33,401 nucleotides of DNA from an uncultured Bifidobacterium sp. (GCA_964609875.1 CAZSUF010000001.1:17923-51323); one strand, 5' to 3'; shown: positions 1 through 33,401, counted from the stretch's first letter. Numbers and translations: made by a program. The notes: generated from the sequence alone by a model not told the origin.

Positions 1-1
1 T

Positions 2-55: not shown

Positions 56-106
56 AAAGAAGCTGCTTTAAAGGAGTATTAATAATTAAAACTCATTTAA
101 GCAGTT

Positions 107-6038: not shown

Positions 6039-6124
6039 GGGCTGCTGATTAATTCTGTAAACAAGCACTTGATTGATTGAATAGGTCAAATGTTTATATC
6101 ATTCACAAAATTCTATATTAGCAC

Positions 6125-7330: not shown

Positions 7331-7625
7331 AGTCGTTCACTTTTTAAGAGAATGCTAAAGTAGAGGATGAAATTTGTATTTGCAAGTTACATTTATATTA
7401 ATCGAAGGAAGAAAAAATCTACTTGTTATAAATACATCTGTATTGACCTGAATTTAAGCATTATACATATCAAGTCAGGAAGAAATTATTTTTTAAAAAA
7501 TATTAGAATCCTTGAAGGTTGAGAGAAGATAAATATGTATGTTGTAACTTGTATGTGTCATAATTGTTCTATTCAGTCGATTTTAAGGTTTAATTCTTGA
7601 ATTGTTTGGAGGTGATTTATATTAA

Positions 7626-13800: not shown

Positions 13801-14366
13801 GTATTTCCTTCTGGTTGAAAGGGAATGGTATTGTCGGTGATTGCCCCTGTAAGTTGAATACTATCTCCTAGGTTGCCTTCTAATTGTAAATTAAATTGGG
13901 AGTTAAGTACCACATCTTGACTATTTCCAAATGAAAGAGCTCTGCCAAAACTGCCAGCATAGTTTACATTACCAAAATCAATAAATGGTTGATTGCTTTG
14001 TGCTTGGGTACCATCGTAATAAAAAGGCCTAAGACTTAAATTAGTTTCCATGAATCTAATATCTTTATGATAATAGGGCGAAACAAGTAAAGAAGGAAAT
14101 ACTCGATACGAAACTTTAATACTATCTAGCAGTGGTTTTGTTTTCCAAAACAATATGGCTTTGCTCCAATCCAAGGTATATGAACTTGAATCGGCACCTT
14201 GAAGGATGAGTGAATTTGGTACTATACTAAGAGAATCAATTTGCAATGAATCGGTGTTAACCTGAATATATTTTTCGCGCAAGTTCGACAGATCAAATGT
14301 CTGGGAAAAAATTGGTCTACTTATGATGAAGCAACCTAATATGAAAATTATAAATTTTAGATTCAA
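10887..14366 (-). CDS. Large (1159 aa) predicted outer-membrane beta-barrel protein, family not recognised
   Basis: Signal peptide MNLKFIIFILGCFIISRPIFSQ. Long stretches show alternating hydrophobic/polar beta-strand patterns rich in Y/N/S/G. The C-terminal ...ASVRAIF ends in an aromatic residue, as in OMP beta-signals. Confidence 0.55.
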   Translation of the reverse strand: MNLKFIIFILGCFIISRPIFSQTFDLSNLREKYIQVNTDSLQIDSLSIVPNSLILQGADSSSYTLDWSKAILFWKTKPLLDSIKVSYRVFPSLLVSPYYHKDIRFMETNLSLRPFYYDGTQAQSNQPFIDFGNVNYAGSFGRALSFGNSQDVVLNSQFNLQLEGNLGDSIQLTGAITDNTIPFQPEGNTQQLQEFDRVFLQFKRKKSMLIAGDYDIQKPQSYFMNFYKRVQGGFISSSYNIGHVGEQHTAVGVSLAKGKFVRNILKALEGNQGPYKLTGPNGEQYFVILAGTERVYIDGIQMNRGEDQDYVIDYNTAEITFMPKRLITKDLRVVVEFEFSDRNYINSLIYVHHDWQPNAKLQIRLDVFSNQDAKNQPVQQDLDSTQKRFLATIGDSIQQAFYPSVKYQDTFQVGKILFKKIDTLVLGTLYPNVYVYSTNPDSAKYELSFSYVGLGNGNYRQSINSANGRVYAWIAPNNGVRQGEYEPVIVLVTPKKQQMFTLGSTYKIDSAKNIQAEIALSDYDPNTFSKIDNPNHIGLAGKLQYDEKRTLDKKHKLSLYSKINYEFVQDKFKAIERFRNVEFARDWNINPTDKSENEHLGDASFLIDLKDKGNLGYKFATYYRGNSFRGTQHNILFNGQYKSYQIILKNDLMKQESILNKSTFYRPFFQLEKKFKSLNQLTLGTRFLLEHNILRDNQSDTLSKGAFSFDATSLYLKNNPSAANTFQAEYTLRHDRAASQNEFKPTTLGNTFSLSSNISSIKNQQIRGTAAYRILSIQDTTLTSLKPDESLLGRIEYDFSFWKGLLAGNLLYEFGSRQELKREYAYVEVPIGQGLYVWRDYNQDNVQQLNEFELAIFPDEKKFIKVLTPTNQYVKAKYGIYNQTVSLNPKTFFNTSQLHGIKKIISIFYIQSAIQLNNRFIGKQGLSQYNPFVRVLDDSLLINNTSSWINSIILNRFSNQWGLDYIQTTNTNKTLLNYGIDSRKNNEHLLRGRYNLTQQFTLGLSGKYGKKIFSSQFLESRTFRIEYWATDPGFTYLFKKNQFRIQCNYKFDVRKNAPLYGGEKAVIHSINADIKYNIISSGSINLRSTFSSIKYDGVVNSGLGYTMLDGFQVGKNWQWQASFEKRISKSIEMSIEYEGRKPATNAAVHTGRASVRAIF

Positions 14367-14542
14367 ACTTAGATATATTGCGAATAACGCATAAAATTAA
14401 GTATTCTATACAGCATACACATGAATTATTTACCTTGATTCTTCTTAGTAATTAATATGGATTGTTTTGTGACCGATAAAAATCTTTGCCTAACCTCAAA
14501 TATTTTAGTATCATCTCAGTTAGGAGTATATTTATTTTTAAG

Positions 14543-15583
14543 ATGAAAAAACTGAAACAGCCCTATGTTATTGCCTTGCATGTATTGGCTTGTTTATTGT
14601 TTTTAATTGCACCTATATTTTTAGCTTCTCATTCTTTTCTTTCTCTTAAGGGGGTGCCCATGAGTTTTATCTTCAAAGATTTAATTCGTAATTCGATCAA
14701 TATTTTTTTCTTTTACTTAAACTATTTTTATCTTATTCCTGTTTTATATATTCCTAAAAAATTTATTACCTATTTATTAGTCTTGATAGTCTCCTTGTTG
14801 TTGATCACTTTTCTGCCCACTTTACTCGTTTTTCATCAATTTATTCCTGTTTTTCCTGGAGGCGGAGAAAGGCATTATCATGAAACATCGATCTTTGGTT
14901 CTATCATGTTAGAAATTAGGTTGGCATTATATATTTATATTTCGGTTGTTTTTGCTTCTATATTATTCAGGTTAAATTATCATCTTAAAAAATTACAAGC
15001 AGAAAAAATGAATTCTGAATTATCTTATTTAAAAGCTCAAATCAATCCTCATTTTTTGTTTAATACTTTGAATAGTATTTATTCACTTGCCATTGAAAAA
15101 TCACCCAATACGGCTCCTTCAATAATCAAATTGTCGAGCATGATGCGCTATGTCATTAGCGATACTTCACATAAGTATGTGTCACTTGAAAAGGAAATGA
15201 ATTATATCAAAAGCTATATTGAATTGCAAAAAATCAGGCTAGGGGATACTGCCAATGTAAATTTTTCATTTACCGGAGAAACTGAAAATAAAATGATAGC
15301 GCCTTTGGTATTGATTCCCTTTATAGAGAATGCATTCAAACATGGTGTAAATCCCGAAGAGCCGTCGCAAATTGATATACAAATAAGTTTCACAGATGCT
15401 TATATTTATTTGCACGTATTTAATTTAAAGGTGCCTCATATTCAAGACCCGAAAACTAAATCGGGTTATGGTTTGAAAAATGGAAGCGAACAACTAAATT
15501 TACTATATCCGAACAAGCATATATTAACGATTGAAGATAAAGAACATAGTTTTACAGTATCACTTAAAATTGACATATCATGA
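14543..15583 (+). CDS. LytS/YehU-type sensor histidine kinase (membrane 5TM-like N-terminus plus His_kinase/HATPase)
   Basis: AQINPHFLFNTLNSIYSLA (PF06580 signature). LIPFIENAFKHG (N-box). GYGLKN (G-box). Several N-terminal TM helices. ATG at 14543 is preferred over the TTG at 14486. Confidence 0.85.
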   Translation: MKKLKQPYVIALHVLACLLFLIAPIFLASHSFLSLKGVPMSFIFKDLIRNSINIFFFYLNYFYLIPVLYIPKKFITYLLVLIVSLLLITFLPTLLVFHQFIPVFPGGGERHYHETSIFGSIMLEIRLALYIYISVVFASILFRLNYHLKKLQAEKMNSELSYLKAQINPHFLFNTLNSIYSLAIEKSPNTAPSIIKLSSMMRYVISDTSHKYVSLEKEMNYIKSYIELQKIRLGDTANVNFSFTGETENKMIAPLVLIPFIENAFKHGVNPEEPSQIDIQISFTDAYIYLHVFNLKVPHIQDPKTKSGYGLKNGSEQLNLLYPNKHILTIEDKEHSFTVSLKIDIS

Positions 15584-16278
15584 TTAAAGCCATTGCCATA
15601 GACGACGAACCATTAGCCTTAAAAATTATTGAAAATTTTTGTAAGGATGCCCCAAATATTCAATTAGAAAAAACATTTTCTAAGCCAACGGATGCCTTAA
15701 AGCATATCAATAATTTCCCAGTCGATTTATTATTTTTAGATATACAAATGCCTTCTATTTCTGGTATTGATTTTTATAAAAATCTAAATCAAGATATGAT
15801 GGTAATCTTTACAACTGCCTATAGCGAATACGCAGTTGATGGTTTTAATTTAAATGCGATTGATTTTTTATTAAAGCCATTTACCATGGAGCGTTTTTTG
15901 CAAGCCGTCAATAAAGCAGAAGATTTCTATAGCTATGCACATTCTAAGGAAAATGTAAATAATCCCTATTTGTTTGTTCGAGCAGATTATAGTTTGGTGA
16001 AGATTAAAATCCAAGATATCATTTACATTGAAGGCCTAAACGACTATTTGAAATTTCATATTGAAAATCAAAAGCCTGTTGTTGCAAGAATGACCTTGAA
16101 GACTTTGCAGGAAAAATTACCTTCCAAAGATTTCGTGAGATCACATAGGTCTTATATTGTGCCTATACAACGAATTGTACAAATTAAAAATAAGAATATC
16201 TATCTTTCTCAAGATGGTAAAATGATAGAACTTCCAATTGGTAAGAGTTATGAAGAAGAATTAGCCAAGTTTTTCTAA
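15580..16278 (+). CDS. LytR/AlgR-family response regulator (REC plus LytTR DNA-binding domain)
   Basis: REC domain: IAIDDEPLA...DLLFLDIQMP...LLKPF. LytTR domain: FVRSHRSYIVPIQRI. There is a 4-nt ATGA overlap with the kinase gene. Confidence 0.9.
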   Translation: MIKAIAIDDEPLALKIIENFCKDAPNIQLEKTFSKPTDALKHINNFPVDLLFLDIQMPSISGIDFYKNLNQDMMVIFTTAYSEYAVDGFNLNAIDFLLKPFTMERFLQAVNKAEDFYSYAHSKENVNNPYLFVRADYSLVKIKIQDIIYIEGLNDYLKFHIENQKPVVARMTLKTLQEKLPSKDFVRSHRSYIVPIQRIVQIKNKNIYLSQDGKMIELPIGKSYEEELAKFF

Positions 16279-16300
16279 GAGAGTTACCCCACAAAAGAAA

Positions 16301-16329
16301 TATCTTATCTCAAAAATAGGTATATTATC
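16301..16329 (+). promoter_or_regulatory. Candidate LytTR box: two 9-bp imperfect direct repeats with a 20-bp period, upstream of the T9SS-cargo operon
   Basis: TATCTTATC (16301-16309) and TATATTATC (16321-16329), each followed by a CAAA-type tail. They lie in the 126-bp gap between the response regulator and the next gene. LytTR regulators typically bind 9-bp direct repeats about 21 bp apart. Confidence 0.25.
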
Positions 16330-16404
16330 AAATGGTTATTTTATTTTCGAGCAGAATTGTAAAGCTTGACTTTTACAGTTCAGCTTCAATTTAAAATACT
16401 CATT

Positions 16405-18087
16405 ATGATTAAAAAATTATTCAACCTATTTTTATGTTCAATAGCTCTTTGTGGTTCAATGAATGCACAAAGATATAATGGCTATACATTATATAGCATT
16501 CAAAATTCAAATGCAGCTACCTTACTCGATTCGAATCAAAATGTCTTTCATACTTGGTCTGGTTTGTCAGCCTCAACAGGTTATGCTTCTTATCTAATGC
16601 CAGGAGGTATTTTAGTTAGGGCAGCCAAAGGAGGCACTCCACCTTCAGGAGCACCAGGAGGTCCGATTTGCGGAAAGGTGCAAAAGCACGATTATGCAGG
16701 TGCACTAACATGGGATTATACGTATACTGGAACAGATTATGTTACCCATCATGATATTTGTCCCATGCCTAATGGCAATGTATTGGTTATAGCTTATGAA
16801 AGAAGAACAGCCGCTGAAGTTACAGCCGCCGGTGGAAATTCAGCCATTCAAATGTGGCCTGATAAAATTGTAGAAATTCAACCTACAGGTGCAACAACCG
16901 GAAACATCGTGTGGGAATGGAAGGCTTTCGATCATCTGATGCAGAATGTAGATGCTACTAAACCCAATTATGTGACAAGTTTAGTTAATAACCCACAACG
17001 ATTGAATATTAATTACAAGCAAACTTCTGATTGGTTGCATATGAACGGTCTAGATTATAACCCAATTTTAGATCAGATCGCTTGGAGCTCTCATAATTTG
17101 AATGAATGGTATATCATAGATCATAGTACCACTACTGCTGAAGCGGCTGGTAGCACAGGTGGAAATTCAGGTAAGGGAGGAGATATACTCTATCGATGGG
17201 GTAATCCTGCTGCTTATGGAGCAACGGGTACTGCTATTTTAAATGTAACTCATGATGCCCATTGGATCAAAGAAGGAATTCCGAATGCAGGACGATTGGT
17301 AGGATTTAATAATAAAGGTGTCTCTTCGAATATTTCTGCAGTAGACCAAATCATCACACCTATAAATGGCTATACCTATAATATTGCAGCAGGGCAAGCC
17401 TACGGACCAACAACTTATACAGAAAGAGATACATGTAATGGCTATACAAGTAATATGGGTAGTTCAGAGCAATTGCCTAATGGAAACATGCTAATTTGTA
17501 TTGCTACCTCAGGTAAGTTTTATGAAATTAATAGTGCAGGCACACAATTATGGACTAAAACTGTGACAGGTTCAACAGCACAAGTACATGCTTATGATAG
17601 TTGTTATTTATTTGGCACACCTCCCGCAATTCCTACAATTACTTTGAGTGGATCAAATTTAACTTCAAGCTCTGCTACCACATATCAATGGTATATGAAC
17701 GGGGTATTAATTTCAGGTGCAAATAGCATGAACTATACACCCACAGTAAGCGGTGTTTATGTAGTTCGAGTGACTAATGCGAGTGGTTGCGTTTACCAAT
17801 ACTCACCAGGATTTAAATACACCAAACCTAATGCTCTTCAAGAATATGATTTGACTCATTCAATTACGGTTTATCCTAATCCTGCAAATGATGTTTTATT
17901 TATTCAAGATAATATGAAGTTGGGACAACAATTTTTAGCAAGTATTTACAATAGTTATGGACAATTAGTGAAGAATAGCTATAATAAAAGAGAAATAGAT
18001 TTATCTTCATTGGCAAACGGATATTATACTTTAAACATCACTTCTCAACAAGGTACAGCTACCCAAAAATTTATCATTCAGAGATAA
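16405..18087 (+). CDS. Arylsulfotransferase (ASST)-like beta-propeller protein with an Ig-like module and a T9SS type-A sorting domain
   Basis: Signal peptide MIKKLFNLFLCSIALCGSMNAQ. GYTLYS...VTHHDICPMPNGNVLVIAYE...IVWEWKAFDHL is an ASST-like pattern. CTD ITVYPNPANDVLFIQ...GYYTLNI. ATG at 16405 is preferred over the track start at 16366. Confidence 0.7.
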   Translation: MIKKLFNLFLCSIALCGSMNAQRYNGYTLYSIQNSNAATLLDSNQNVFHTWSGLSASTGYASYLMPGGILVRAAKGGTPPSGAPGGPICGKVQKHDYAGALTWDYTYTGTDYVTHHDICPMPNGNVLVIAYERRTAAEVTAAGGNSAIQMWPDKIVEIQPTGATTGNIVWEWKAFDHLMQNVDATKPNYVTSLVNNPQRLNINYKQTSDWLHMNGLDYNPILDQIAWSSHNLNEWYIIDHSTTTAEAAGSTGGNSGKGGDILYRWGNPAAYGATGTAILNVTHDAHWIKEGIPNAGRLVGFNNKGVSSNISAVDQIITPINGYTYNIAAGQAYGPTTYTERDTCNGYTSNMGSSEQLPNGNMLICIATSGKFYEINSAGTQLWTKTVTGSTAQVHAYDSCYLFGTPPAIPTITLSGSNLTSSSATTYQWYMNGVLISGANSMNYTPTVSGVYVVRVTNASGCVYQYSPGFKYTKPNALQEYDLTHSITVYPNPANDVLFIQDNMKLGQQFLASIYNSYGQLVKNSYNKREIDLSSLANGYYTLNITSQQGTATQKFIIQR

Positions 18088-18126
18088 TTTTCATGCTGAC
18101 TAACTAATTCCTTAAACCTTCAAAAT

Positions 18127-19122
18127 ATGAACAAGAAAATATATATCCTCTTTTTTTTCATGCTGTGCTCATTTTTCATGCAAGCAAAAAAAGTTAAATT
18201 CACCGTTGATATGTCGGGGCAAGTACTAAGTTCTTTAGGCATACATGTTATTGGTGATTTTCAAACTATTGCTGGTTTAGGAGCAGACTTTATACCAGAT
18301 CCATTATGTAAAATGACCAAAGACCTCACTGACACTAATTTGTATTATTTATTTGCAGACATTCCAGCATTCGCTAAATATGAATACAAATATGTAAATG
18401 GAGACCAAACTTATGAAGTTGAAATAGTTCCAGAATTATCTCAAGTAGGCTATAATTTTGATGATAATCGTTGGATTTATATTGATTCCTTAGCGAATGA
18501 CACCACAAAATTAGCATCTGTACAATTCTCACAAAATGGCCCTAAAGGATTAAATACGATTCGCTTTAAAGCAGATATGACTTTGCAAACCGTTTCCCCT
18601 CAAGGTGTACACGTTGCTGGAAGTTTTCAATCTAATGATCCTAAAACACATAAGCTATATAGTTTTGGCAATAATGTCTATGAAATTATTGCGTATATGC
18701 CTGCTGCTTCTTATGATTACAAATATTATAATGGAAGCACCTTGGCCGATGCAGAAACTGTTCCTTCAAGTTGCGCCGTAAGTGGTAATCGCACCATTGC
18801 TTTAAGTCAAGATACTTTGCTCAATGTGTGTTATGCCCTCTGTACTTCTTGCTATCCAGCTTCTACAATAGCACTTGAAGAATCAAACATGGAATTTTAT
18901 CCCAACCCCATGAATGATCAGGCTATCTTAAAAATGAATGTAAATCATTTGCCCAATGAAGTTATTGTGTTGGATGTTTTTGGAAGAAAAGTACAACAGT
19001 ATACGTCCATAACAAGCCCGATATTGTCAATTCAACGAAACAATCTTTCAGCAGGAATTTATTCCATCAAATTAAAATATACTGATGATAAAGTGCAAAC
19101 ATCCACATTCATTATTCAATAA
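18127..19122 (+). CDS. Secreted protein with two tandem CBM20/48-like beta-sandwich modules and a T9SS type-A sorting domain
   Basis: Two internal repeats are seen: KVKFTVDMSGQVLSSLGIHVIGDFQ...YEYKYVNG and IRFKADMTLQTVSPQGVHVAGSFQ...YDYKYYNG. CTD MEFYPNPMNDQAIL...GIYSIKL. A signal peptide is present. Confidence 0.55.
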   Translation: MNKKIYILFFFMLCSFFMQAKKVKFTVDMSGQVLSSLGIHVIGDFQTIAGLGADFIPDPLCKMTKDLTDTNLYYLFADIPAFAKYEYKYVNGDQTYEVEIVPELSQVGYNFDDNRWIYIDSLANDTTKLASVQFSQNGPKGLNTIRFKADMTLQTVSPQGVHVAGSFQSNDPKTHKLYSFGNNVYEIIAYMPAASYDYKYYNGSTLADAETVPSSCAVSGNRTIALSQDTLLNVCYALCTSCYPASTIALEESNMEFYPNPMNDQAILKMNVNHLPNEVIVLDVFGRKVQQYTSITSPILSIQRNNLSAGIYSIKLKYTDDKVQTSTFIIQ

Positions 19123-19123
19123 A

Positions 19124-21391
19124 ATGAGCATGAAAAAATTTAGTCAAAAAGCAAGTATCTTACTTGCTTTTTTGTGTTTAATACAATTTGCAAAGGCCCA
19201 ATCTTTGTATGATGTAAACACGATACAAGAAATTAAAATCACTTTATCGCAAGCAAATTGGGATTATCAAATGGATACAGCCAAGTATGGCAAGGAAGGC
19301 TATTTAATGGCGGCAACTGTAGATATCAATGGTGTTGTTTTTGATAGTGTGGGTGTTAAGTATAAAGGCAATAGCTCTTACGATTCTACAAGAAAAAAGA
19401 ATCCTCTGCATATCAATTTAGATAAATTTAAAAACCAAAAGTATAACAACTATACAAGCATTAAATTAAGTAATGGCTATGGCGATCCTTCTTTAATTCG
19501 TGAAGTTCTCGCCTATAGATTATTAGGTAATTATATGCATTGTCCTAAATCTAATTTTGCCAAAGTATATATCAACGGAGAGTATATTGGATTGTATTCA
19601 AGTGCCGAAGATATAGGTTCAAGATTTTTAGGCGATCATTTTTACTCAAATCAAAATACCTTTATTAAATGCAACCCAACAGTAAATCCTGGTCCAACAA
19701 CTAAAAGTAATTTCAAGTATATAAATGCCGATAGCACGTCGTATCAAACATTGTATGAAGTTAAATCAGACTTTGGCTGGAACGATTTGGTTAACTTATG
19801 TGATTCTGTGACCAACAATCCTGCAAGTCTCGATCGTGTGTTAGATATGGATAGAGTTATTTGGATGTTAGCTTTTAATAATGCCACTGTAAATTTAGAT
19901 AGTTACAGCGGTGTCTTTGCGCAAAATCATTATACCTATAAAGATAAAACAGGCCATTTTAATCCCATCATTTGGGATTTGAATATGTGCTTTGGCGCTT
20001 TTCTATTTGCGGGGGCAGGTGGTACCTCTATGGGCAATCAAACTGTGGCTACCATGAAACAGTTTGCCTACAATAATCATAGCACCGATACTTTTTGGCC
20101 TTTGATCAATGCCATTCATGCCAATGACACATATAAAAGAAAATATATTGCTCATATGAAAACTATTATCAATGATATGATAGATTCTACTTCATATAGA
20201 CCCATAGCCATGCAAATGCAAGCACTTATTGATGCCTCTGTATTAGCTGATACCAATAAGTTTTTTACTTATACTAAATTTCAAGAAGCATTAGATAGCA
20301 ACTTTGTTGTTGGAAGTTACACGGTTCCAGGAATCATGACATTAATCGATGGTCGAATAGCCTATAAAAATAGTACCAGCGAATTTACCGTGGCAGCGCC
20401 TATTGTTTCCAATATCTTAGTCACTCCTGCGGCACCAAACTATAATACTAATTTTACTTTAACAGCGCAAATCAGTGCCGCAAATATCAATGGAGTTACC
20501 CTTGGTTACAGATTCGATAAAACCCTCAAGTTCGAGAAGGTGGTCATGTATGATGATGGCGCACATAACGATGGTGTCGCCAATGATGGATTATTTGGCG
20601 CTAACCTAACGATGCAAGGTGCCCAAATGCAGTATTATATGTATGCCGAAAATAATGATGCAGGTATTTTTTATCCTGCGCGCGCCGAACATGAATTTTA
20701 TACACTCACAGCCACTTCGGCAAATGCCAGTGCAGGACAAATTGTGATCAACGAATTTTTGGCTGATAATATTGGCTTGCAAAAAGATGAATATAATGAT
20801 ACTGAAGATTGGATAGAATTATTTAATACCACCAATCAAATAATTGATTTGAGCAACTGCTATTTATCAGACGAGGCCACGAATTTAAAGAAATGGAAAA
20901 TTCCAGCTAACACATTTATCCTGCCCAACGGATATCAAACGATGTGGACCGATGATGATTCTTGGCAACAAATTTTGCATACAAATTTTTCTATCAGCAA
21001 AGATTCAGGCCACTTATATTTTAGTTTACCTGATACCACCATTTCAGATCAAGTTACCTTTGGTACGCAAACCACTAACGTTTCTTATGGCAGGTATCCG
21101 AATGGCACCGGACCTTTTGTAAGCATGAATACCACCTATGGATATATCAATGATAATTCTCCTTTGCTTATTCAAAATCTAAGCATGCATGCGCCCTTAT
21201 TCGTTTATCCTAATCCTGCTACATCGCGACTCACCATTTCCACCACTAACCCATCCGATATTGAAATATATAATTCCATGGGCCAATTTGTATTCAGAAC
21301 AAGCAGTCATGAAATTGATGTAACAAACTTCAGTAGAGGATTGTATTTTGTACAATGCGGACAAGAAGTAAGCAAGGTTGTTTTGAAGTAA
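19124..21391 (+). CDS. Secreted CotH kinase-fold protein with a lamin-tail domain (LTD) and a T9SS type-A sorting domain
   Basis: Signal peptide ...LCLIQFAKAQ. CotH core NFAKVYINGEYIGLYSSAEDI...NPIIWDLNMCFG. LTD IVINEFLADN...EDWIELFNTTNQIIDLSNCYLSD. CTD LFVYPNPATSRLTIS...GLYFVQ. The start lies 1 nt after the preceding stop. Confidence 0.85.
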   Translation: MSMKKFSQKASILLAFLCLIQFAKAQSLYDVNTIQEIKITLSQANWDYQMDTAKYGKEGYLMAATVDINGVVFDSVGVKYKGNSSYDSTRKKNPLHINLDKFKNQKYNNYTSIKLSNGYGDPSLIREVLAYRLLGNYMHCPKSNFAKVYINGEYIGLYSSAEDIGSRFLGDHFYSNQNTFIKCNPTVNPGPTTKSNFKYINADSTSYQTLYEVKSDFGWNDLVNLCDSVTNNPASLDRVLDMDRVIWMLAFNNATVNLDSYSGVFAQNHYTYKDKTGHFNPIIWDLNMCFGAFLFAGAGGTSMGNQTVATMKQFAYNNHSTDTFWPLINAIHANDTYKRKYIAHMKTIINDMIDSTSYRPIAMQMQALIDASVLADTNKFFTYTKFQEALDSNFVVGSYTVPGIMTLIDGRIAYKNSTSEFTVAAPIVSNILVTPAAPNYNTNFTLTAQISAANINGVTLGYRFDKTLKFEKVVMYDDGAHNDGVANDGLFGANLTMQGAQMQYYMYAENNDAGIFYPARAEHEFYTLTATSANASAGQIVINEFLADNIGLQKDEYNDTEDWIELFNTTNQIIDLSNCYLSDEATNLKKWKIPANTFILPNGYQTMWTDDDSWQQILHTNFSISKDSGHLYFSLPDTTISDQVTFGTQTTNVSYGRYPNGTGPFVSMNTTYGYINDNSPLLIQNLSMHAPLFVYPNPATSRLTISTTNPSDIEIYNSMGQFVFRTSSHEIDVTNFSRGLYFVQCGQEVSKVVLK

Positions 21392-22272: not shown

Positions 22273-22373
22273 ATGTATAATTTTGTCTGTGTTTTAGTTA
22301 ATGTATTATCTTCTGTGCCATGCAACTCACCAGTTGGGCTTGTCGAAGATTAGACATTTGAAACACGCATATT

Positions 22374-22381
22374 CAAAAGTA
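22374..22381 (-). promoter_or_regulatory. Candidate Bacteroidota -7 promoter element (TACTTTTG = TAnnTTTG) for terC
   Basis: Exact match to TAnnTTTG on the minus strand, about 100 nt upstream of the terC ATG (22272). No clean -33 TTG was found. Confidence 0.3.
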
Positions 22382-22463
22382 GTACATGTATCATAAAATT
22401 TCACATATTGAGGCTTGCAATTTTGCTGGCACTGTTCATTGAGGCATGCATATCATAAAGCAT

Positions 22464-22812
22464 GTTCTACGAAGCGTCTTCGCTTCGTAGTTTTATTCTA
22501 TTGCTTTCAGCAATAAACGCAATGATCTTATGAAAACAAAATAGTAAATTAATGTTCTAAGTTTTCAGAAGGCTACAAAATTAGAATTTAGTTCTTCAAG
22601 TCATGAGCACTAAACAGTATGTTTTGCGAACCATGAACACTTCGTAGTTTGTTGGACTTGTATTGTTTACGAAGAACAAGAATACATATATAGCTGCGCT
22701 TCAAATTATGTTCATTTGGAAACTATAATTGGCTTTTATTTTTTATAATTCTATTTTCAGATTTGCTACAAGCAAAAGAATATAGCTGCGAAGCGAAGAC
22801 GCTTCGCAGAAC
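22464..22812. mobile_element. MITE-like, palindrome-bounded non-coding element, copy 1 (349 bp)
   Basis: The ~50-bp imperfect terminal inverted repeats match at 43/50 by hand alignment. Each contains a perfect hairpin: CTACGAAGCG-tctt-CGCTTCGTAG (22467-22490) and CTGCGAAGCG-aaga-CGCTTCGCAG (22786-22809). No coding capacity. Confidence 0.4.
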
Positions 22813-22913
22813 GGTTCAAAGCGTGCTTCGAATGACACATTCAAAACCAATTCATCATATCGGAACTGTAAAGCCCTAGCTCAGTTCATTGAGACATGCA
22901 TATCATGAAGGAT

Positions 22914-23262
22914 ATTCTACGAAGCGTCTTCGCTTCGTAGTTGTATTCTATTGCTTTCAGCAATAAACGCAATGATCTTATGAAAACAAAATAGTAAATT
23001 AATGTTCTAAGTTTTCAGAAGGCTACAAAATTAGAATTTAGTTCTTCAAGTCATGAGCACTAAACAGTATGTTTTGCGAACCATGAACACTTCGTAGTTT
23101 GTTGGACTTGTATTGTTTACGAAGAACAAGAATACATATATAGCTGCGCTTCAAATTATGTTCATTTGGAAACTATAATTGGCTTTTATTTTTTATAATT
23201 CTATTTTCAGATTTGCTACAAGCAAAAGAATATAGCTGCGAAGCGAAGACGCTTCGCAGAAC
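22914..23262. mobile_element. MITE-like, palindrome-bounded non-coding element, copy 2 (349 bp)
   Basis: Identical to copy 1 except at 22914 (a vs g) and 22943 (g vs t). The hairpins are at 22917-22940 and 23236-23259. Confidence 0.4.
23223..23259 (-). terminator. Terminator-like hairpin plus T-rich tract on the minus strand, downstream of the permease operon (right end of element copy 2)
   Basis: The minus strand reads CTGCGAAGCG-TCTT-CGCTTCGCAG followed by CTATATTCTTTTG. The equivalent structure occurs at 22773-22809. On the plus strand the left-end hairpins (22467-22490, 22917-22940) are followed by TTTTATT and TTGTATT. Confidence 0.3.
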
Positions 23263-23330
23263 GCTACAAAGCGTGGTTCGGCACACCCTCTTACAACCAA
23301 TACTTCATATCGGAACTGTAAAGCCCTAGC

Positions 23331-23403
23331 CCCGATAGTAGCGGATACCCCGCACCACGTGCCTCACGTGGGAGGAGTAGCAGCGGATAGCGGGAATAGC
23401 TAC
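23331..23403. other. GC-rich structured patch immediately downstream (minus strand) of the permease gene. Function unknown.
   Basis: Hairpin CCACGTG-cct-CACGTGG (23355-23371). It is flanked by direct repeats containing AGCGGATA (23340-23347 and 23382-23389). Possible outer pairings are CCCGC/GCGGG (23349-23353 / 23390-23394) and GTAGC/GCTAC (23338-23342 / 23399-23403). The patch is conspicuously GC-rich against an AT-rich background. Confidence 0.5.
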
Positions 23404-24535: not shown

Positions 24536-25669
24536 TTATTTGACTTGTCTACCCTTCCAATCATAAGTTCCAAACTGCCCTAGCATACCGGAAATAAGTA
24601 TATAGGGGATATGAACAAACTGCAAGATATAAAAAGTATAGAGTTCTTTTCGTTTATCAAAAAATGAGGTTACGGGAATTAAAAAATACAATTCGACCAA
24701 CACTTTACAGAGTAAAAAACCGAAGAAAGTTGTCCAATGTAATGGCCTAAACAAAGCGGCTAACAACAGGAAGACAAACATTAAATTATACAAATATACT
24801 AAAGCCAATACGGCAATAATTCTTTTGTCTTTGAATTTTCTGGCTTTTGAAGCCCATCGAATTCGTTGCTGCATAAATTCTTTGGGTAAAGTCATGGGTT
24901 GTGTGCTGATGATACTTTCTTTGCATTTCAAATATCTTGTTTTGCGTGGGAACTGTTGTTCGATTTTATACATAAGCAACATGTCATCGCCGCTAGCAAT
25001 ATCATCAATATCTTTAAAGCCGCCGACAGCATCAAATGCTTTGCGTGTGTAGGCTAAATTCGCTCCATTGCACATGGTACCTGATTTCATATGTACCACT
25101 GCGCCTGTGATTCCTTGCATGGTCATAAAATCTAAGGATTGAAACTGTTGAAACCAAGAAACATTACTACTCATGATCACGGGTGAGGCAATTAGCTCCA
25201 CTTGATGTTTTTCGAAGTAAGAAACAATACTCAATAACCAGTATGCACCCATATTGCAGTCTGCGTCGGTCGTTAAAATGAGTTCGCCTCTACTTTGACT
25301 GATGGCAATTTCTATGGCTTTCTTTTTGTAGGAGTTTAATATTTTCCCATCGGTGTATTGATCAAGAGAAATGTACTTGACACCTTGAAATGATTGAACA
25401 ATGTTAGAGGTTTGATCTGTAGAGTGATCGTCGACTACAATAATTTCTAATAGATTTGTTGGATAGTATTGAGAAAGAATATCTTTTAAAATGGAGCCTA
25501 TATTTTTTTCTTCATTTCTTGCCGGAATGATAATGCTCACTAAAGTCTTTGGGTGGTATTGCTTATTTAATTTGTAGATTGGTAAATCATTCCACCCTCT
25601 GCGATAAAACAAAATCAGGGCAGCATAGCCCAAAAATAAAAGTAATGCAATAAGAATCAGAAAACTCAA
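24536..25669 (-). CDS. Membrane-bound family-2 glycosyltransferase (processive NodC/ceramide-glucosyltransferase-like architecture)
   Basis: Motifs: IIIPARNEEKNI, VVDDHSTD, TTDADC (DxD), SGDDMLL and QQRIRWA (QxxRW). There is one N-terminal TM helix and several C-terminal ones. The TTG start sits in a TTGA overlap with the upstream hydrolase gene. Confidence 0.8.
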   Translation of the reverse strand: MSFLILIALLLFLGYAALILFYRRGWNDLPIYKLNKQYHPKTLVSIIIPARNEEKNIGSILKDILSQYYPTNLLEIIVVDDHSTDQTSNIVQSFQGVKYISLDQYTDGKILNSYKKKAIEIAISQSRGELILTTDADCNMGAYWLLSIVSYFEKHQVELIASPVIMSSNVSWFQQFQSLDFMTMQGITGAVVHMKSGTMCNGANLAYTRKAFDAVGGFKDIDDIASGDDMLLMYKIEQQFPRKTRYLKCKESIISTQPMTLPKEFMQQRIRWASKARKFKDKRIIAVLALVYLYNLMFVFLLLAALFRPLHWTTFFGFLLCKVLVELYFLIPVTSFFDKRKELYTFYILQFVHIPYILISGMLGQFGTYDWKGRQVK

Positions 25670-26639: not shown

Positions 26640-26945
26640 GGATTATTTTTGATGAAATCGCTAAAAAAGTTCGAATTAATGTGGAGGAGGAAACTAGGTC
26701 AAGTTATCATTATTTTACGATGAATCCTGAAAAAAAATAGTTGAATGGGTGAAAGACTTTACTTTGACAAACTCATGACAATTTTATGGCATCATTCTTG
26801 CCTGAATTCGGTATTATCATCGATATTTGGAAGAACACTACTTAGATTCATGAAAAGATTTTTACTTCAAGTATTTCATTTTAAAGCACTTGTACTCAAA
26901 TGGCTATTGTATGCCTATAATTTGACGTATAAATTTATTGGGAAA

Positions 26946-27398
26946 ATGGGGCAGAATACAATTCTACAACCTCGGCTTATTCCAATAAAAATACCCGTAA
27001 AGCGTGGTTTTACAATTTTTTTTATGATGCTGTCGTTTCATGTATTTGCCCAAACATCCACAAATCATTTTACAAGCACAGCAGCTAGTTATCAAGTTGA
27101 TAAATTGACGAATGAAGAAAAGGCAGAATTAATTCAACAAATGGTTAATTCAAGTCGTGAAATCGAAATTCCTACGGAGATGGAAAAAAGTTTCAAGGAT
27201 TTTTTTGCGAACAAAGAATTTGGACCCAAGTTGTATTTAAAATTTAGAACGCTGTACGTGGTATTGTTCAATGAGAATATATCTAAAGTGAATCGTTTGC
27301 TGATGTGCAATTTTTTGCTGGATAATATGAGTAGTTCTGAGTTTCCTATAGATAGGGTATTAGATATCAAGCAAACTTTACTTAATTCAAGCAAGTGA
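26946..27398 (+). CDS. Small hypothetical secreted protein (~150 aa) whose stop overlaps the start of the giant adhesin gene
   Basis: The start at M68 of the track ORF gives a charged n-region plus the hydrophobic core FTIFFMMLSFHVFAQ. The 67 upstream codons look like translated AT-rich spacer. The TGA stop (27396-27398) overlaps the GTG (27395-27397) of the next gene. Confidence 0.5.
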   Translation: MGQNTILQPRLIPIKIPVKRGFTIFFMMLSFHVFAQTSTNHFTSTAASYQVDKLTNEEKAELIQQMVNSSREIEIPTEMEKSFKDFFANKEFGPKLYLKFRTLYVVLFNENISKVNRLLMCNFLLDNMSSSEFPIDRVLDIKQTLLNSSK

Positions 27399-30300
27399 AC
27401 AAATTAATAAAATATTATCTTGTAATCCTGCTTTGTTTGTGTACGTTCTTAGTATCGCATGCACAAGTCATTACTGTTTCTGGTGTTTCCGTTACAGGTC
27501 GATTTAATTCATGTAATGGATCTAATTTACCAACCATAACAGCAAACTTGATAAGCAACAATGGAGGTGCCAGTGTAAGCAATGGCTCATTTATTTGTAA
27601 TAATCAATGTGATTCGTCTACAATACGTGTGTCGATTTCTAATATTCGTTGGAATCAAAGTCCCAATGCAGAATGGTTGCATGGTATATTTTTGCCAGCC
27701 AATTTAGGATTTACTGTAAGTCCTGTAACCTTACCTGCTGGATTTATCACTTATAATGCAGGTTGTATAGGTCAATGTCCTTCTGGTTCAGGCACTAATG
27801 GTGGCCCTGGCTTTTATTTTGACAATTCGGCTGGTCAATCTTGTTGTTCAGGAGCTACTGCCAATGATGGTTATCCTTGTAACAATTATGGTAATGTGGG
27901 CATTACTTGTAACAACTCATTTTCTATGACTTTTGATATCAAGTTTTGCAACAGCTTGATTACAACAACAGGCTATACTTTTGTATTTAGTGGAACATCT
28001 GACGGAGAAACAGGATGTTGGAATGTGGATGATAATCAAATTCATCACATCAGTTTTACCATACCCACCAATGCATGTGCCCCTGTAAATCTGGCACCTA
28101 CAGCTACTACACCTATTAGATCTTGTGTGGGTTCTGTGGTGAATTATACATCAACCCTTACAGCGAACTGTAATTTAAATAATGTGTATTGGTGGGATGC
28201 ACCCACTGGGGGAAATTTAGTAGGTACAGGATCTCCATTTACTTATGACCCTTCGGGGTCTGCATGTCCAGCAGGTACTACATTGTATGCCACTTGTTGT
28301 GCTGGAACGGTGAATGGATGTGTTACACGAACACCAATTATCATACCTGGCTCTTGCGATTCTTTGTTTATTAGTGCCGTTAATTTTACAAATCCATTAT
28401 GTTATGGGCAAGGTATTGTTTCATCCATTGTCGTGCAGAACGCAAATGGAATTGTTACCTATACGTTGCAACCAGGTAATGTAGTGAATACCACAGGAAC
28501 ATTTACAGGCTTGAATCAAACATCTTATACAATCACAGCTTCTGATGCATCTGCTTGTTCTGTGGCTACTGTAATTAGTATGATACAGCCCACGCCCATT
28601 GTGTTTGGTACCCCAACTATCACTGGAGTTACATGTGATTTGCCTTCTTCAGGAACAATTTCAATCAATGCAAGTGGTGGAAATGGAGCTATTAATTATA
28701 GTATTAATCCTACAGCCACACAAAGTTCTAGTGGGTATTTTACAAGCTTAAGTGCACAAACTTACACCATCACTGCTTTAGATGCATCGGCATGTTCAGT
28801 AAGCACATTGGTTACTATAGCTCCCCCGCCAGTATTAAATTGGGTGAGTACAACTCAAGTCAATATTGCCTGTAATAATGTTCCCATTGGTTCTATTAAT
28901 GCGACAGCAGGAGGTGGATTTGGGACAATAAATTATACTTTACAACCAGGTTCTGTGACTAATTCGAGTGGAGCTTTTAATACATTAAGTGCAGGCACAT
29001 ATACTGTAACAGCTCTTGATGCAAACGGGTGTACATTATCTACAAGCATTACGATCACTCAACCTGCAGCCTTAACTTGGAACACACCCAATGCAACCAA
29101 CGTGGCTTGCTATAATACCAATTCAGGAGGAATAGCCATCACAGTGAATGGAGGTGCTCTGCCTATTTTATATACCTTGTTACCAGCAAATACTAGTAAT
29201 AATACGGGTACGTTTAGTGGACTTATTGCGACAACGTATACAGTAAACGCCTTAGATGCAAATGGTTGTACTTTGAGCACACAAATTACCCTTACTCAAC
29301 CAACTGCCTTCAATCTAAACAGTGTTACCTTTATTGACCCGACATGTATACCAGGAAATAATGGAAGTATAACTATCACAGCTTCTGGAGGTGTGACCCC
29401 ATATACTTATACATTGAATTCAGTATCTCAACCCGGAAATGTGTTTTCAAATTTACAAGGTGGAACATATACGGTGACTGTGAAAGATGCAAATAATTGT
29501 TCGAATACAAGTATCGTGAGTCTTATTGCACCAGGCACCCCTGTGTATTCATCAGTTAACAATGTGAACCTAGTGTGTAATGGATCTAATACAGGCAGTA
29601 TCAATGTAACAGCTACAGGAAGTTTGGGAGGATTTACGTATAATCTACAACCCACCAATACCACAAATGTTACAGGAAGTTTTACTGGATTAGGTCCAGG
29701 TACTTATACGGTTACAGCCACAGATAATAATACCTGTTATACCCAAACGCTTATTACAATAACTACGCCTGCTCCTATTGTGATGAATAGTTTAACAGCC
29801 ACTAATGTGATTTGCAATAGTGGAAATACAGGAACTATTACTGCTATTGCAAGTGGGGGTTTTGGCACCTTAACCTATAATCTTCAACCCGGAAACGTGA
29901 CCAATACAACAGGCTTATTTACTGGTTTAGCTATTGGGAATTATGCCATTACTGTAAAGGATGCAAACAATTGTAGTATCACCAGTTATATTGCCATTAT
30001 CCAACCTCCCATTGTTACATGGGTAAGTGTAACTAAAGTTGATGTAGGATGTAATGGAGGTGCCAATGGTAGTATTCAAGCGAATGCAACAGGTGGAGTT
30101 GCTCCGATAACTTATACACTTAACCCAGGAAATGTATCAAATCAAACTGGAACCTATTCAAATCTAATCACAGGCATTTATGTAATTACTGCTGCCGATG
30201 CAAACAATTGCACGACAGTCACTTCAGTCAATTTGTTTCAGCCTTCACCTATGTCCATATCGAATGTAAATATTACGTATCCTTCATGTGTACCAGGGAA

Positions 30301-33300
30301 TGATGGAATAGTTGTTGTTGCAGCTATTGGAGGTACATTAAATTATAATTATACATTAGGTGCTTTAACACAAGCTTCAAATACATTTTCAAATTTATCA
30401 TCGGGTGGATATCTAATTTCAGTGACAGATGCGAACAATTGTTCTGCAACAAGTTTTGTAAATATTATCCCACCGAATGCCCCTGTAGTGAACATTTCAG
30501 TTATTCAAGACGTATCATGTTTTGGAGGGAATAATGGCTCTGCACAAAGTAGTGCTACTGGTGGAACAGGGACAATCAATTTTAATCTTCAACCTGGAAA
30601 TCTAAATAACACGAGTGGAAATTTTACTAATTTAATTGCTGGGACCTATACAGTAACTGCCACAGACCAATTAGGTTGTTCTGGGAATGCAACTTTTTCT
30701 GTTTTACAAAATGTCTTACTCACCTTAAATGCCCCTGTAGTGAGTTTGCCTTTATGTCAAAATAGTACAAATGGAATTTTAAATGTGAGCGCACAAGGCG
30801 GAACGGGAACATACACCTACAACTTAATGCCTGGGAATATTTCAAACACGTCAGGGTTATTTAATAATTTAGGAGGGGGCTCCTATACCGTTTCTGTAGT
30901 TGATGGGAATGCTTGCACAAATACGCAGTTAATTACTTTATCAGCCCCCACAGCTATCACATGGACTAGTGTCTCAAATAATAATTTAAGTTGTAATAAT
31001 TCAAATAATGGGTCTATCACAGCAAATGCTTCAGGTGGGGTTGGATTAATTGATTATGCGCTACAACCTGGAAATATTGTAAATAATGTAGGTGTGTTTT
31101 CTAATTTGAGTGCAGGTACTTATACCGTAATGGCAAAAGATGCGAATGCATGTTCAATTAGTTCAATTGTGATTCTTACACAACCTTCTACCTTAACAAT
31201 TAACGCAGTACAAACCACCCCTGCATCTTGCATCCCAGGAAATAATGGAACATTAACAGTGAATGCAGGAGGAGGCACTTTGCCTTATAATTATTCCATT
31301 GGATCTGGCACGCAAACATCTGCAGTCTTTAATAATTTAATTTCAGGTATTTATAATATCACTGTAACCGATGGGAACTTATGTTCGGTAACCTCAACGG
31401 CTACAATTATTACACCCAATGGTCCAACTATTAGCTCAATAAATACAGTAGCTGTAAGCTGTAATGGCGGTAATGATGGACAAGCAACTGTAATCAGTTC
31501 AGGAGGAACAGGTTCTTCTTCCTATAATTTATTACCTAATAATATTACCAATACAACGGGTGTTTTTTCAAATCTGAATGCTTCAACTTATACCGTAGTT
31601 GTGACTGATGCAAATGGTTGTTCAGTTACAAGTAGTTTTTCAATTATTCAACCAACACCTTTAAGTATTCAGACTGCAAGTCCAACAAATATTACTTGTA
31701 ATGGTTTAAATAATGGGGTCATTAATATTTCAGCAAACGGTGGAACGGGTGCCATAACTTATGTATTAAACCCAGGGAATGTTTCAAATGCTACAGGTAT
31801 TTTTAATAACCTTTCGGGTAATAATTATACTGTAACTGTGAAAGATGCAAATTTATGTACCTTAACAACATTGGTAAGCATCATTAACCCACAAGCACTC
31901 ACAATACTGCTTGCCACTTCTTCAAATTTAAATTGCTTTGCGGGCAGTGAAGGAGCTATTCAAATGAATGTGATAGGAGGAACAGGAACGATAAATTATG
32001 TTCTTCAACCTTTAAACATTTCAAGTGCCTCAGGTCTGTTTAGTAATCTTGCAGCCAACACATATACAGTTGTTGCCAACGATGCAAATGGATGTTCAAT
32101 ATCGTCTGTATTTACATTAACTCAGCCTGCTGCACCCATTTTTACCCCTGTTATCGTGAGTCCTTCATGCACACCTGGCAACGATGGAAGTATAACCATC
32201 AATACTTCTGGTGGAACGCCTCCTTATAATTTTACTATAAACGGAGGTAGTGCTCAAACTTCAAATACCTTTAGTAATCTAGCAGCTGGTATTTATACAA
32301 TTGTAGTAGCTGATTCGAATGATTGCAAAGAAATACTTACCATTACAATTGCACCTCCCAATGCTCCTATCATAAATAATGCAGTGGCTTCCATTGTGAA
32401 TTGTTTTGGCGGGAATGATGCTATTATACAAGTAACAGGTGCTGGAGGTGTGGGCGCATTAAATTATAAATTACTTCCAAATAGTACTATCAATAATACG
32501 GGTATATTTAATGGGCTAACAGTAGGCACTTATACTGTCATTGTATCTGATGCAGGCAATTGTACAGTAAGTACTATTTTGACAGTTAATCAACCCGTTC
32601 AACTTGTATGGACTGGATCTGTTACTACTCCTATTAGTTGTTTTGGTGGTAACGATGGACAATTATCTGTGAATGCGAATGGAGGTATCGGACAAATTAA
32701 TTATACACTTCAACCCGGCAATATTACCAATACTACAGGTATGTTTTCCAATTTAGGTGCAAATGTGCACACCATTACCGCCATGGATGCTAACAATTGT
32801 TTTATTACAACCACACTTCAAATTACCCCTCCTTCTCAAATTTTAGTGACTAATGTAAATCTTGTTCAAGCCTCTTGTTTTGGCAGCAACGATGGTTCAA
32901 TACAAATTACTGCAACAGGGGGTACTGGTCAATTAACTTATCAGCTTTTACCTGGTTCTGTGAATAATCTTACTGGACAGTTTTCTGCTTTAGTTGCAGG
33001 GAATTATACAGTAATTGTTACTGATGTTAATAATTGTAGTACTTCTACCACAATGACAATTTCTCAACCAGTCGTTTTGCAAATTTCAAATTTACTTAGT
33101 ACTATTCCAAGTTGTATACCCGGAAATGACGCCTCTATTACAGTTTCTGCTTTAGGTGGTACTTCTCCTTATTCTTATTCAATCGGTGCGGGAAATCAAA
33201 GTTCAAATGTGTTTTTAAATTTGGGTGCGGGCAATTATACTATTCAAGTTACCGATGCAAATAATTGCACTGCTACTAGTGCCATACTTATTAGTAATCC

Positions 33301-33401
33301 AAATTCACCTGCTATCAATTCTGCAACATCTTCATTTGTCAATTGCTTTGGTGGAAACGATGCGATCATACAAGTAAGTGCAAGTGGTGGCACCGGTCAA
33401 T
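27395..33401 (+). CDS. Giant SprB-repeat cell-surface adhesin-like protein, 3'-partial (>2002 codons, runs off the right edge)
   Basis: I translated frame 2 by hand from GTG 27395, the first start-like codon after TAA 27383-27385. It begins (M)NKLIKYYLVILLCLCTFLVSHAQ (signal peptide). A Cys-rich region follows, then the Ig-like segment CVGSVVNYTS...VYWWDAPTGGNLVGTGSPFTYDP...TLYATC. After that come 22 repeats of the type C-N-G-G-N-D-G...GG.G...Y.L.P...N.TG.F..L..G.Y.V.V.DANGC. The frame was re-checked at 33341 (NCFGGNDAIIQVSASGGTGQ). The gene is absent from the ORF track only because no stop codon occurs before the window end. Confidence 0.9.
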   Translation, partial: MNKLIKYYLVILLCLCTFLVSHAQVITVSGVSVTGRFNSCNGSNLPTITANLISNNGGASVSNGSFICNNQCDSSTIRVSISNIRWNQSPNAEWLHGIFLPANLGFTVSPVTLPAGFITYNAGCIGQCPSGSGTNGGPGFYFDNSAGQSCCSGATANDGYPCNNYGNVGITCNNSFSMTFDIKFCNSLITTTGYTFVFSGTSDGETGCWNVDDNQIHHISFTIPTNACAPVNLAPTATTPIRSCVGSVVNYTSTLTANCNLNNVYWWDAPTGGNLVGTGSPFTYDPSGSACPAGTTLYATCCAGTVNGCVTRTPIIIPGSCDSLFISAVNFTNPLCYGQGIVSSIVVQNANGIVTYTLQPGNVVNTTGTFTGLNQTSYTITASDASACSVATVISMIQPTPIVFGTPTITGVTCDLPSSGTISINASGGNGAINYSINPTATQSSSGYFTSLSAQTYTITALDASACSVSTLVTIAPPPVLNWVSTTQVNIACNNVPIGSINATAGGGFGTINYTLQPGSVTNSSGAFNTLSAGTYTVTALDANGCTLSTSITITQPAALTWNTPNATNVACYNTNSGGIAITVNGGALPILYTLLPANTSNNTGTFSGLIATTYTVNALDANGCTLSTQITLTQPTAFNLNSVTFIDPTCIPGNNGSITITASGGVTPYTYTLNSVSQPGNVFSNLQGGTYTVTVKDANNCSNTSIVSLIAPGTPVYSSVNNVNLVCNGSNTGSINVTATGSLGGFTYNLQPTNTTNVTGSFTGLGPGTYTVTATDNNTCYTQTLITITTPAPIVMNSLTATNVICNSGNTGTITAIASGGFGTLTYNLQPGNVTNTTGLFTGLAIGNYAITVKDANNCSITSYIAIIQPPIVTWVSVTKVDVGCNGGANGSIQANATGGVAPITYTLNPGNVSNQTGTYSNLITGIYVITAADANNCTTVTSVNLFQPSPMSISNVNITYPSCVPGNDGIVVVAAIGGTLNYNYTLGALTQASNTFSNLSSGGYLISVTDANNCSATSFVNIIPPNAPVVNISVIQDVSCFGGNNGSAQSSATGGTGTINFNLQPGNLNNTSGNFTNLIAGTYTVTATDQLGCSGNATFSVLQNVLLTLNAPVVSLPLCQNSTNGILNVSAQGGTGTYTYNLMPGNISNTSGLFNNLGGGSYTVSVVDGNACTNTQLITLSAPTAITWTSVSNNNLSCNNSNNGSITANASGGVGLIDYALQPGNIVNNVGVFSNLSAGTYTVMAKDANACSISSIVILTQPSTLTINAVQTTPASCIPGNNGTLTVNAGGGTLPYNYSIGSGTQTSAVFNNLISGIYNITVTDGNLCSVTSTATIITPNGPTISSINTVAVSCNGGNDGQATVISSGGTGSSSYNLLPNNITNTTGVFSNLNASTYTVVVTDANGCSVTSSFSIIQPTPLSIQTASPTNITCNGLNNGVINISANGGTGAITYVLNPGNVSNATGIFNNLSGNNYTVTVKDANLCTLTTLVSIINPQALTILLATSSNLNCFAGSEGAIQMNVIGGTGTINYVLQPLNISSASGLFSNLAANTYTVVANDANGCSISSVFTLTQPAAPIFTPVIVSPSCTPGNDGSITINTSGGTPPYNFTINGGSAQTSNTFSNLAAGIYTIVVADSNDCKEILTITIAPPNAPIINNAVASIVNCFGGNDAIIQVTGAGGVGALNYKLLPNSTINNTGIFNGLTVGTYTVIVSDAGNCTVSTILTVNQPVQLVWTGSVTTPISCFGGNDGQLSVNANGGIGQINYTLQPGNITNTTGMFSNLGANVHTITAMDANNCFITTTLQITPPSQILVTNVNLVQASCFGSNDGSIQITATGGTGQLTYQLLPGSVNNLTGQFSALVAGNYTVIVTDVNNCSTSTTMTISQPVVLQISNLLSTIPSCIPGNDASITVSALGGTSPYSYSIGAGNQSSNVFLNLGAGNYTIQVTDANNCTATSAILISNPNSPAINSATSSFVNCFGGNDAIIQVSASGGTGQ
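28394..33401 (+). repeat. Array of 22 tandem SprB-type coding repeats (231-240 nt each) organised in a ~942-nt, 4-module super-repeat
   Basis: A leading Cys codon occurs every 231-240 nt. From the fifth module on, every fourth module begins C-[IVT]-P-G-N, with Cys codons at 29345, 30287, 31229, 32168 and 33113. The first module, Cys codon 28400 (LCYGQG), occupies the same register but is a diverged variant. Confidence 0.9.

Follow-up and report, generated by a model that had tools for sequence, protein, structure and literature searches.

SprB, the mobile gliding adhesin of Flavobacterium johnsoniae, is a giant repetitive protein with a C-terminal domain (CTD) of type B that belongs to the secretion system of type IX (T9SS), and type-B CTD proteins are held on the cell surface by PorP-like carriers (PMC9143113). 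Movement of the cargo requires in addition a Cys-x-Cys in the C-terminal tail of the carrier, which is disulfide-bonded to GldK (PMC12635249). Proteins combining SprB repeats with a type-B CTD form, however, a large class with mixed functions. Cytophaga hutchinsonii has type-B CTD proteins that take part in cellulose degradation and glucose uptake, and deletion of the sprB homolog chu_2225 left gliding unaffected, a result cited as unpublished data (PMC11611037), and orphan type-B substrates sharing a distal shuttle have been documented in F. johnsoniae (PMC12618676). A preliminary description of the stretch analyzed here (GCA_964609875.1 CAZSUF010000001.1:17923-51323, filed under an uncultured Bifidobacterium sp.; the window, 33,401 nucleotides (nt) in all) had placed a giant gene with SprB-type repeats in its last 6 kb and had counted the product among the mobile surface adhesins of gliding Bacteroidota. 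Our analysis indicates that this region is likely a gene's 5' part, the gene coding for a giant surface protein, built like a fibril, of a Chitinophagaceae-like Bacteroidota bacterium. The protein would be a static adhesin, or a fibril for aggregation, whose head binds a ligand, perhaps a glycan. Relatives are identified below by protein (P) and locus (L) numbers, and feature coordinates are collected in Table 1.

Full translation of the plus strand confirmed that frame 2 contains no in-frame stop over 2002 codons from the GTG at 27395, and the frame is still open at the end of the window, so that the gene runs past it as had been proposed. At the base composition of the region, the probability of such a stop-free run is about 1e-59 (log10 P = -58.8). 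The remaining five frames contain 86-198 stops each, with a longest open run of 91 codons, and the longest start-to-stop open reading frame (ORF) in these other frames encodes 78 amino acids (aa). No other start codon lies between this GTG and an in-frame TAA at 27383-85, one ortholog (L009) likewise starts with GTG ('VNKILHFF...'), and the N-terminus read from this position aligns with the signal peptides of the orthologs. The best relatives of the giant protein are 40-49% identical to it and cover 99-100% of the query. The gene had been reported as missing from the ORF track, and it is indeed absent there, but the cause is not biological: the listing rule excludes ORFs that run off a sequence end. 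The encoded protein is nearly uncharged (K+R+D+E = 3.2%) and enriched in Thr, Asn, Gly and Ser.

The preliminary description had given the protein a clean signal peptide, a Cys-rich head, an Ig-like module and 22 SprB-type repeats, and this architecture held up throughout. The quoted signal peptide is correct and aligns with its counterparts in the orthologs; it shows n-, h- and c-regions, ends in SHA, and is followed by QVITVSG... in the predicted mature protein. Cleavage after VNKLIKYYLVILLCLCTFLVSHA would leave Gln24 exposed, matching the Q-rule of the Bacteroidetes (PMC5837995). A lipoprotein signal was considered and rejected, as neither Cys14 nor Cys16 (contexts LLC and LCLC) has a small residue at -1. 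Of the 12 cysteines in the head, 10 are conserved across the family alignment, which also reveals invariant His, Asp and Asn residues and the motifs EWLHG[IL]F[FL]P, GPGFYFD, NDGxPCNNYG and GTSDGxTGCW. The head has no match in Pfam and no sequence match in the PDB. An AlphaFold2 (AF2) model of aa 24-335, built on a 21-sequence alignment, is a confident one and nearly all beta (predicted local distance difference test score, pLDDT, 84; predicted template modeling score, pTM, 0.77), and a Foldseek search of this head and Ig-like model against the PDB returned nothing significant (best E=4e-3, template modeling score <=0.25); its weak matches are two-beta-domain folds, such as the N-terminal domains of glycoside hydrolase family 2 and pilus chaperones. 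The Ig-like module is composed entirely of beta strands in the same model, and matches PF19081 Ig_7 ('CHU_C associated') at aa 234-315 below threshold (22.7 bits against a cut-off of 27.3, E=1.2e-4). The closest head sequences come from the Chitinophagaceae (P0121, 80% identity; genome representatives, at most 69%).

The stalk consists of 21 complete SprB repeats and a truncated 22nd, in agreement with the count of 22 given before, and the PF13573 search recovered 21 stretches (380.1 bits against a cut-off of 28, E=1.6e-116). PDB sequence searches with the repeats as query returned nothing meaningful. Complete units span 77-79 aa and contain two cysteines 51-53 residues apart. Autocorrelation of the protein sequence peaks at lags of 314, 628 and 79 aa, and units 5, 9, 13, 17 and 21 constitute a distinct subtype of 77-78 aa ('C[IVT]PGN[ND]...GG..PY.Y'), with 41-55% identity among themselves and 23-45% (mostly around 30-35%) to the other units. 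Since the subtype recurs at every fourth unit, the array is, from unit 5 on, a 314-aa super-repeat of four units. In two relatives (P0001 and P0006) several 314-aa super-repeats are nearly identical, pointing to recent expansion, and those of the window are about 42% identical; P0001 ends at a contig edge inside its near-identical super-repeats. Repeat number evidently shifts fast in this family.

The same array bears on whether the region could be a pseudogene, an artifact of assembly or repeat DNA that codes for nothing, a suspicion that may arise from the absence of the ORF from the list, from the frequent misassembly of repetitive genes, and from relatives that carry premature stops or are cut at contig ends. 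Tandem Repeats Finder reported no array in the region, because repeats that are only 60-85% identical at the DNA level are too diverged for it. The two results together argue that the repeats are old, that the assembly inside the window is credible and that collapse is unlikely. With 2002 stop-free codons, an absence from the list that follows from its rule, and protein-level conservation with syntenic orthologs over the full length, this possibility is hardly credible, and for the part inside the window it is effectively refuted.

The stop codon and the C-terminal domain lie outside the window, and an NCBIfam search of the 2002 aa present yielded no match, as the CTD is beyond its end; the C-terminal part was therefore assessed through orthologs. 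In the window, the genes are ordered OppC-like permease, glycosyltransferase family 2 (GT2), alpha/beta-hydrolase, small ORF and giant gene. The order is the same in Filimonas sp. GCA_003569345.1 (L001), where the giant protein has 2696 aa, and is kept, except for an alpha/beta-hydrolase call, in a metagenomic contig (L003) encoding a giant protein of 2381 aa. Both of these syntenic orthologs match TIGR04131, the type-B T9SS sorting domain, above its cut-off of 35 bits (P0006, 46.8; P0009, 50.4). The 19 head-bearing SprB-repeat relatives that are complete (1754-3086 aa) all close with the CTD motif '...KKGD..L.R', those without the motif being cut at contig ends. The sorting domain (TIGR04131/CHU_C) expected by the preliminary description is thus backed by orthology, and the window protein probably carries one. 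The last ~1000 aa of the orthologs are collinear with one another and have no collinear counterpart in the window, and the full protein therefore probably has at least 3000 aa, of which the window would hold about the first two-thirds; some relatives exceed 3650 aa. Within 10 kb of the giant gene, the syntenic loci contain no PorP, SprF or gld genes, and in four orthologous loci a glycosyltransferase family 4 (GT4) gene lies directly downstream. The protein contains 78 N-x-S/T sequons, and the Bacteroidetes O-glycosylation motif D[ST][AILVMT] occurs just once. The flanking GT2 and GT4 genes may be linked to glycosylation of the fibril, and their conservation together with the sequons invites the speculation that the giant protein is N- or O-glycosylated.

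The head is found on other kinds of cargo as well. It is carried by type-A CTD proteins of 309 aa (P0125-P0128; loci L039-L041), by type-B proteins of about 900 aa in Ferruginibacter (L027, L028), and by type-B proteins of about 1030-1080 aa in Weeksellaceae/Flavobacteriia (L029-L045), including the cultured Moheibacter sediminis. Judged by this distribution, the Cys-rich head is a shuffled module. Most of the Weeksellaceae/Flavobacteriia head loci, the Moheibacter locus (L029) excepted, have a PorP/SprF gene downstream, its PorP_SprF identity being confirmed by Pfam in three loci. The eight PorP/SprF carriers examined beside head genes there contain no cysteine at all, and therefore lack the C-tail Cys-x-Cys for track coupling.

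These observations bear directly on the proposal that the giant protein is a true SprB-type mobile gliding adhesin, which an SprF-like protein joined by a disulfide to the moving GldK track would carry over the cell surface so that the cell glides. The proposal draws on the SprB repeats of the window protein and the type-B CTD of its orthologs, a combination of repetitive giant and type-B CTD that SprB itself displays (PMC9143113), on the name 'gliding motility-associated C-terminal domain-containing protein' under which databases list the relatives, and on the ability of some orphan-type CTD fusions in F. johnsoniae to follow helical tracks (PMC12618676). The giant protein is, however, not an SprB ortholog. 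The sprC-sprD-sprB-sprF operon context is not found: the genes upstream encode a small helical protein, an alpha/beta-hydrolase, a GT2 and a permease, with no sprC/sprD-like gene upstream in the window, and the syntenic orthologs, where a GT4 gene follows, have no sprF/porP or gld gene within 10 kb. The head is not shared by the many other SprB-repeat proteins, which bear different heads such as choice-of-anchor L, and it sits on the 309-aa type-A proteins; the carriers adjoining head genes in the Weeksellaceae lack the cysteines needed for movement (PMC12635249), and the roles of type-B CTD proteins in C. hutchinsonii are not confined to gliding (PMC11611037). We therefore consider assignment to the mobile adhesins of gliding Bacteroidota unlikely, and this part of the preliminary description is not retained. 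Because the evidence points away from an SprB-like gliding adhesin, a static role is favored: the protein would most likely be an adhesin or a fibril for aggregation, with a binding head at its far end.

Immediately upstream of the giant gene lies a small gene that we term its partner, annotated only as 'hypothetical protein' in the database record. Alignment with orthologs of 111-139 aa indicates that its likely true start is the ATG at 26946, giving a 150-aa product whose signal peptide ends in ...HVFA before a Gln at about position 27050 and leaves a mature part of some 115 aa; in most partner orthologs the signal peptide likewise ends in AQ or SQ. The TGA stop of the partner (27396-98) overlaps the GTG of the giant gene (27395-97) as GTGA. 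No terminator-like site was found between the two ORFs, and a pattern scan of the intergenic sequence that precedes the small ORF found a single TAnnTTTG (26644..26651). A scan for sigma-70 promoters gave matches at or below shuffle expectation, the sigma-70 consensus being of the wrong type for Bacteroidota. By their arrangement, the partner and the giant gene are co-transcribed, and their translation is probably coupled through the GTGA overlap. A confident AF2 model of the mature partner (10-sequence alignment) is a six-helix bundle (pLDDT 85, pTM 0.74), for which Pfam gave no match and Foldseek against the PDB a best E of 0.9. An exhaustive profile search of 1.84 billion representatives retrieved 131 partner clusters, all of them small stand-alone proteins.

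In 44 of the 46 loci, the gene that directly precedes the head gene on its strand is a partner homolog, separated from it by 0-64 nt or overlapping it by up to 27 nt, and no partner homolog was found elsewhere in the examined loci or the window. The linkage spans giant SprB-repeat proteins, the ~900-aa Ferruginibacter proteins, the ~1030-1080-aa Weeksellaceae proteins, which have no SprB repeats, and the 309-aa type-A CTD proteins; the partner therefore tracks the head, and not the stalk or the sorting signal. We infer that it may be a head-specific periplasmic helper or binding partner. In a broader proposal, which is tentative and to which we lean slightly less than to its contrary, partner, signal peptide and head would form a two-component cassette shuffled as a unit onto diverse T9SS cargo, the partner either chaperoning or blocking the head specifically in the periplasm, or being displayed with it as a subunit. 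If this is true, T9SS would have a type of accessory factor, specific to its cargo, that has not been described for it. In one relative, a Chitinophagaceae metagenome-assembled genome (L002), a defense cluster resembling a cyclic-oligonucleotide-based antiphage signaling system (3997-9312) lies directly upstream of the partner/giant pair, and its products match the patatin, DncV-like nucleotidyltransferase, E1/E2-like, JAB, Cap15-like and mCpol families.

The strict linkage of the partner to the head, whatever follows the head, also resembles effector-immunity pairs, and could be taken to mean that the head is an enzymatic or toxic effector displayed or delivered by T9SS and the small protein its periplasmic inhibitor or immunity factor. 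The invariant His, Asp and Asn residues and the existence of stand-alone head proteins with a type-A CTD would be in keeping with such a function. Immunity genes, however, usually lie downstream of C-terminal toxin domains. Neither Pfam nor comparison of sequence and fold with the PDB relates the head to a family of enzymes or toxins. Adhesin tips are typically placed as it is, at the N-terminus of a very long stalk of repeats, and a Ca2+- or glycan-binding site would account just as well for the conserved pattern of Asp, Asn and aromatic residues. An effector-immunity function is accordingly judged improbable.

Under the static-fibril reading preferred here, the giant protein would be exported by Sec and carried across the outer membrane by T9SS, and its C-terminus would be held on the surface by a PorP/SprF-family carrier encoded elsewhere in the genome, making it an 'orphan' type-B substrate. 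The missing C-terminus would, on the model of the syntenic orthologs, comprise ~1000 aa of further atypical repeats and the type-B sorting domain. The head would be displayed at the far end of a stalk of the order of 100 nm, where it could bind a ligand, perhaps a glycan, and the small six-helix secreted protein would serve it as periplasmic helper or binding partner. Several points weigh against this reading. The signal peptides were called by inspection and alignment; the proposed secretion route and anchoring draw on orthology at 45-65% identity; and the role of the head as a ligand-binding tip is suggested by position and architecture alone, no head relative being of known function.

Annotators should treat the final 6 kb of the window as coding, and label it as a partial gene for an SprB repeat-containing T9SS cargo, with a type-B CTD expected, and neither as repeats without coding function nor as 'SprB'. 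Giant surface fibrils are numerous in Chitinophagaceae genomes, and by itself this gene is ordinary. The modestly new element is the uncharacterized pair of head and partner, which lies outside Pfam and the PDB and occurs together with two CTD types and in several families. The pair offers a testable lead on how the tip of T9SS cargo is handled or what it binds, for which Moheibacter sediminis provides a cultured host.

The remainder of the window is informative on the host. The window has a GC content of about 35%, and the type-A T9SS sorting domain PF18962 is found in the products of four of its genes; core T9SS genes are not in the window. Together with the Flavo-1 RNA (Table 1) and the Chitinophagaceae relatives of the head, these features point to a Chitinophagaceae-like host with a T9SS, and by sequence comparison the host species is unrepresented in the collections searched. 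The Flavo-1 RNA ends a stretch of about 1 kb (22273-23323) without ORFs of 40 aa or more, between the TerC and permease genes. On the plus strand (14486-21391), three genes for T9SS type-A cargo come after a two-component pair of the LytTR type and encode an arylsulfotransferase-like protein, a 331-aa protein and a CotH-kinase-like protein with a lamin-tail domain, and a second CotH-like cargo gene lies on the minus strand (7626-10100). At the left edge (1-2779, plus strand), an isoleucyl-tRNA synthetase-like ORF begins only at the GTG at 107 (890 aa), with four in-frame stops just upstream of this start and the expected N-terminal ~200 aa missing from the window; it could be a split or interrupted gene, or mark an assembly junction at the window edge. 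The ORF that follows (2783-3919, plus strand; 378 aa) has a C-terminal DksA/TraR zinc finger (aa 344-374) as its single Pfam match, and is either an over-extended call or a protein with an unusually long N-terminal extension. A minus-strand ORF of 1159 aa (10887-14366) has no Pfam match at E<=1e-3.

Table 1. Features of the giant gene, its partner and their surroundings. Positions refer to the window unless a locus is given.
Feature	Position	Strand	Basis or remark
Giant ORF, 5' part	27395..33401	+	2002 codons, no stop, cut off at window end
Sec/signal peptidase I signal peptide, aa 1-23, VNKLIKYYLVILLCLCTFLVSHA before Q	27395..27463	+	Read from sequence; aligns with ortholog signal peptides ending AQ/SQ
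Cys-rich N-terminal head, aa 24-228 (205 aa)	27464..28078	+	Family alignment; AF2 model, predicted beta-sandwich
Ig-like module and linker, aa 229-323, 7 Cys	28079..28363	+	Sub-threshold Ig_7 match; seven beta strands in AF2 model
21 complete SprB repeats, aa 324-1971	28364..33307	+	Pfam PF13573, phased by conserved Cys
Repeat 22, first 31 aa, cut by window end	33308..33401	+	Unit table
Small partner gene	26745..27398	+	Alignment with orthologs; longest ORF 217 aa from ATG 26745 (P0130)
Possible promoter of two-gene operon, TAnnTTTG (Bacteroidota -7-type)	26644..26651	+	Consensus match only
GT2 glycosyltransferase	24536-25669	-	Upstream of giant gene; likewise upstream in L001, L003
GT4 glycosyltransferase	L001 18585-19736; L003 17192-18343; L008 17130-18302; L016 11426-12625		Directly downstream of giant gene
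Flavo-1 RNA (RF01705)	23324-23401	+	49.6 bits; points to Bacteroidota

The window family was compared with its closest described systems. With SprB (Fjoh_0979, 669 kDa) it shares the plan of a giant repetitive surface protein with PF13573 repeats and a Sec signal peptide (PMC9143113), whereas its type-B sorting domain is known here from the orthologs alone, its head is different and has a partner gene of its own, sprC/sprD are absent upstream and sprF is not adjacent in the orthologs, and these orthologs reach 2.4-3.7 thousand aa against 6.5 thousand aa for SprB. The F. johnsoniae orphans Fjoh_1123 and Fjoh_1720 as well as Fjoh_4934, which share the distal shuttle Fjoh_1677, resemble the syntenic orthologs in being type-B cargo unlinked to a porP/sprF-like gene (PMC12618676), a likeness of gene arrangement; the window-family proteins are much larger and repeat-dominated. 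The CHU_C proteins of C. hutchinsonii (for example CHU_3220 and the sprB-like chu_2225) are likewise large type-B (PF13585/TIGR04131) surface proteins, here of a lineage other than Flavobacterium and some with SprB repeats, whose functions extend beyond gliding (PMC11611037), but their N-terminal domains differ, and a small partner encoded upstream has not been reported for any of them. The last group is the head-bearing short cargo, represented by the 309-aa type-A proteins (P0125-P0128) and the 1034-aa type-B protein of Moheibacter sediminis (L029). Although these proteins do without the SprB-repeat stalk, and one class has a type-A CTD, they carry the same head at 40-44% identity, with the same partner encoded immediately upstream.

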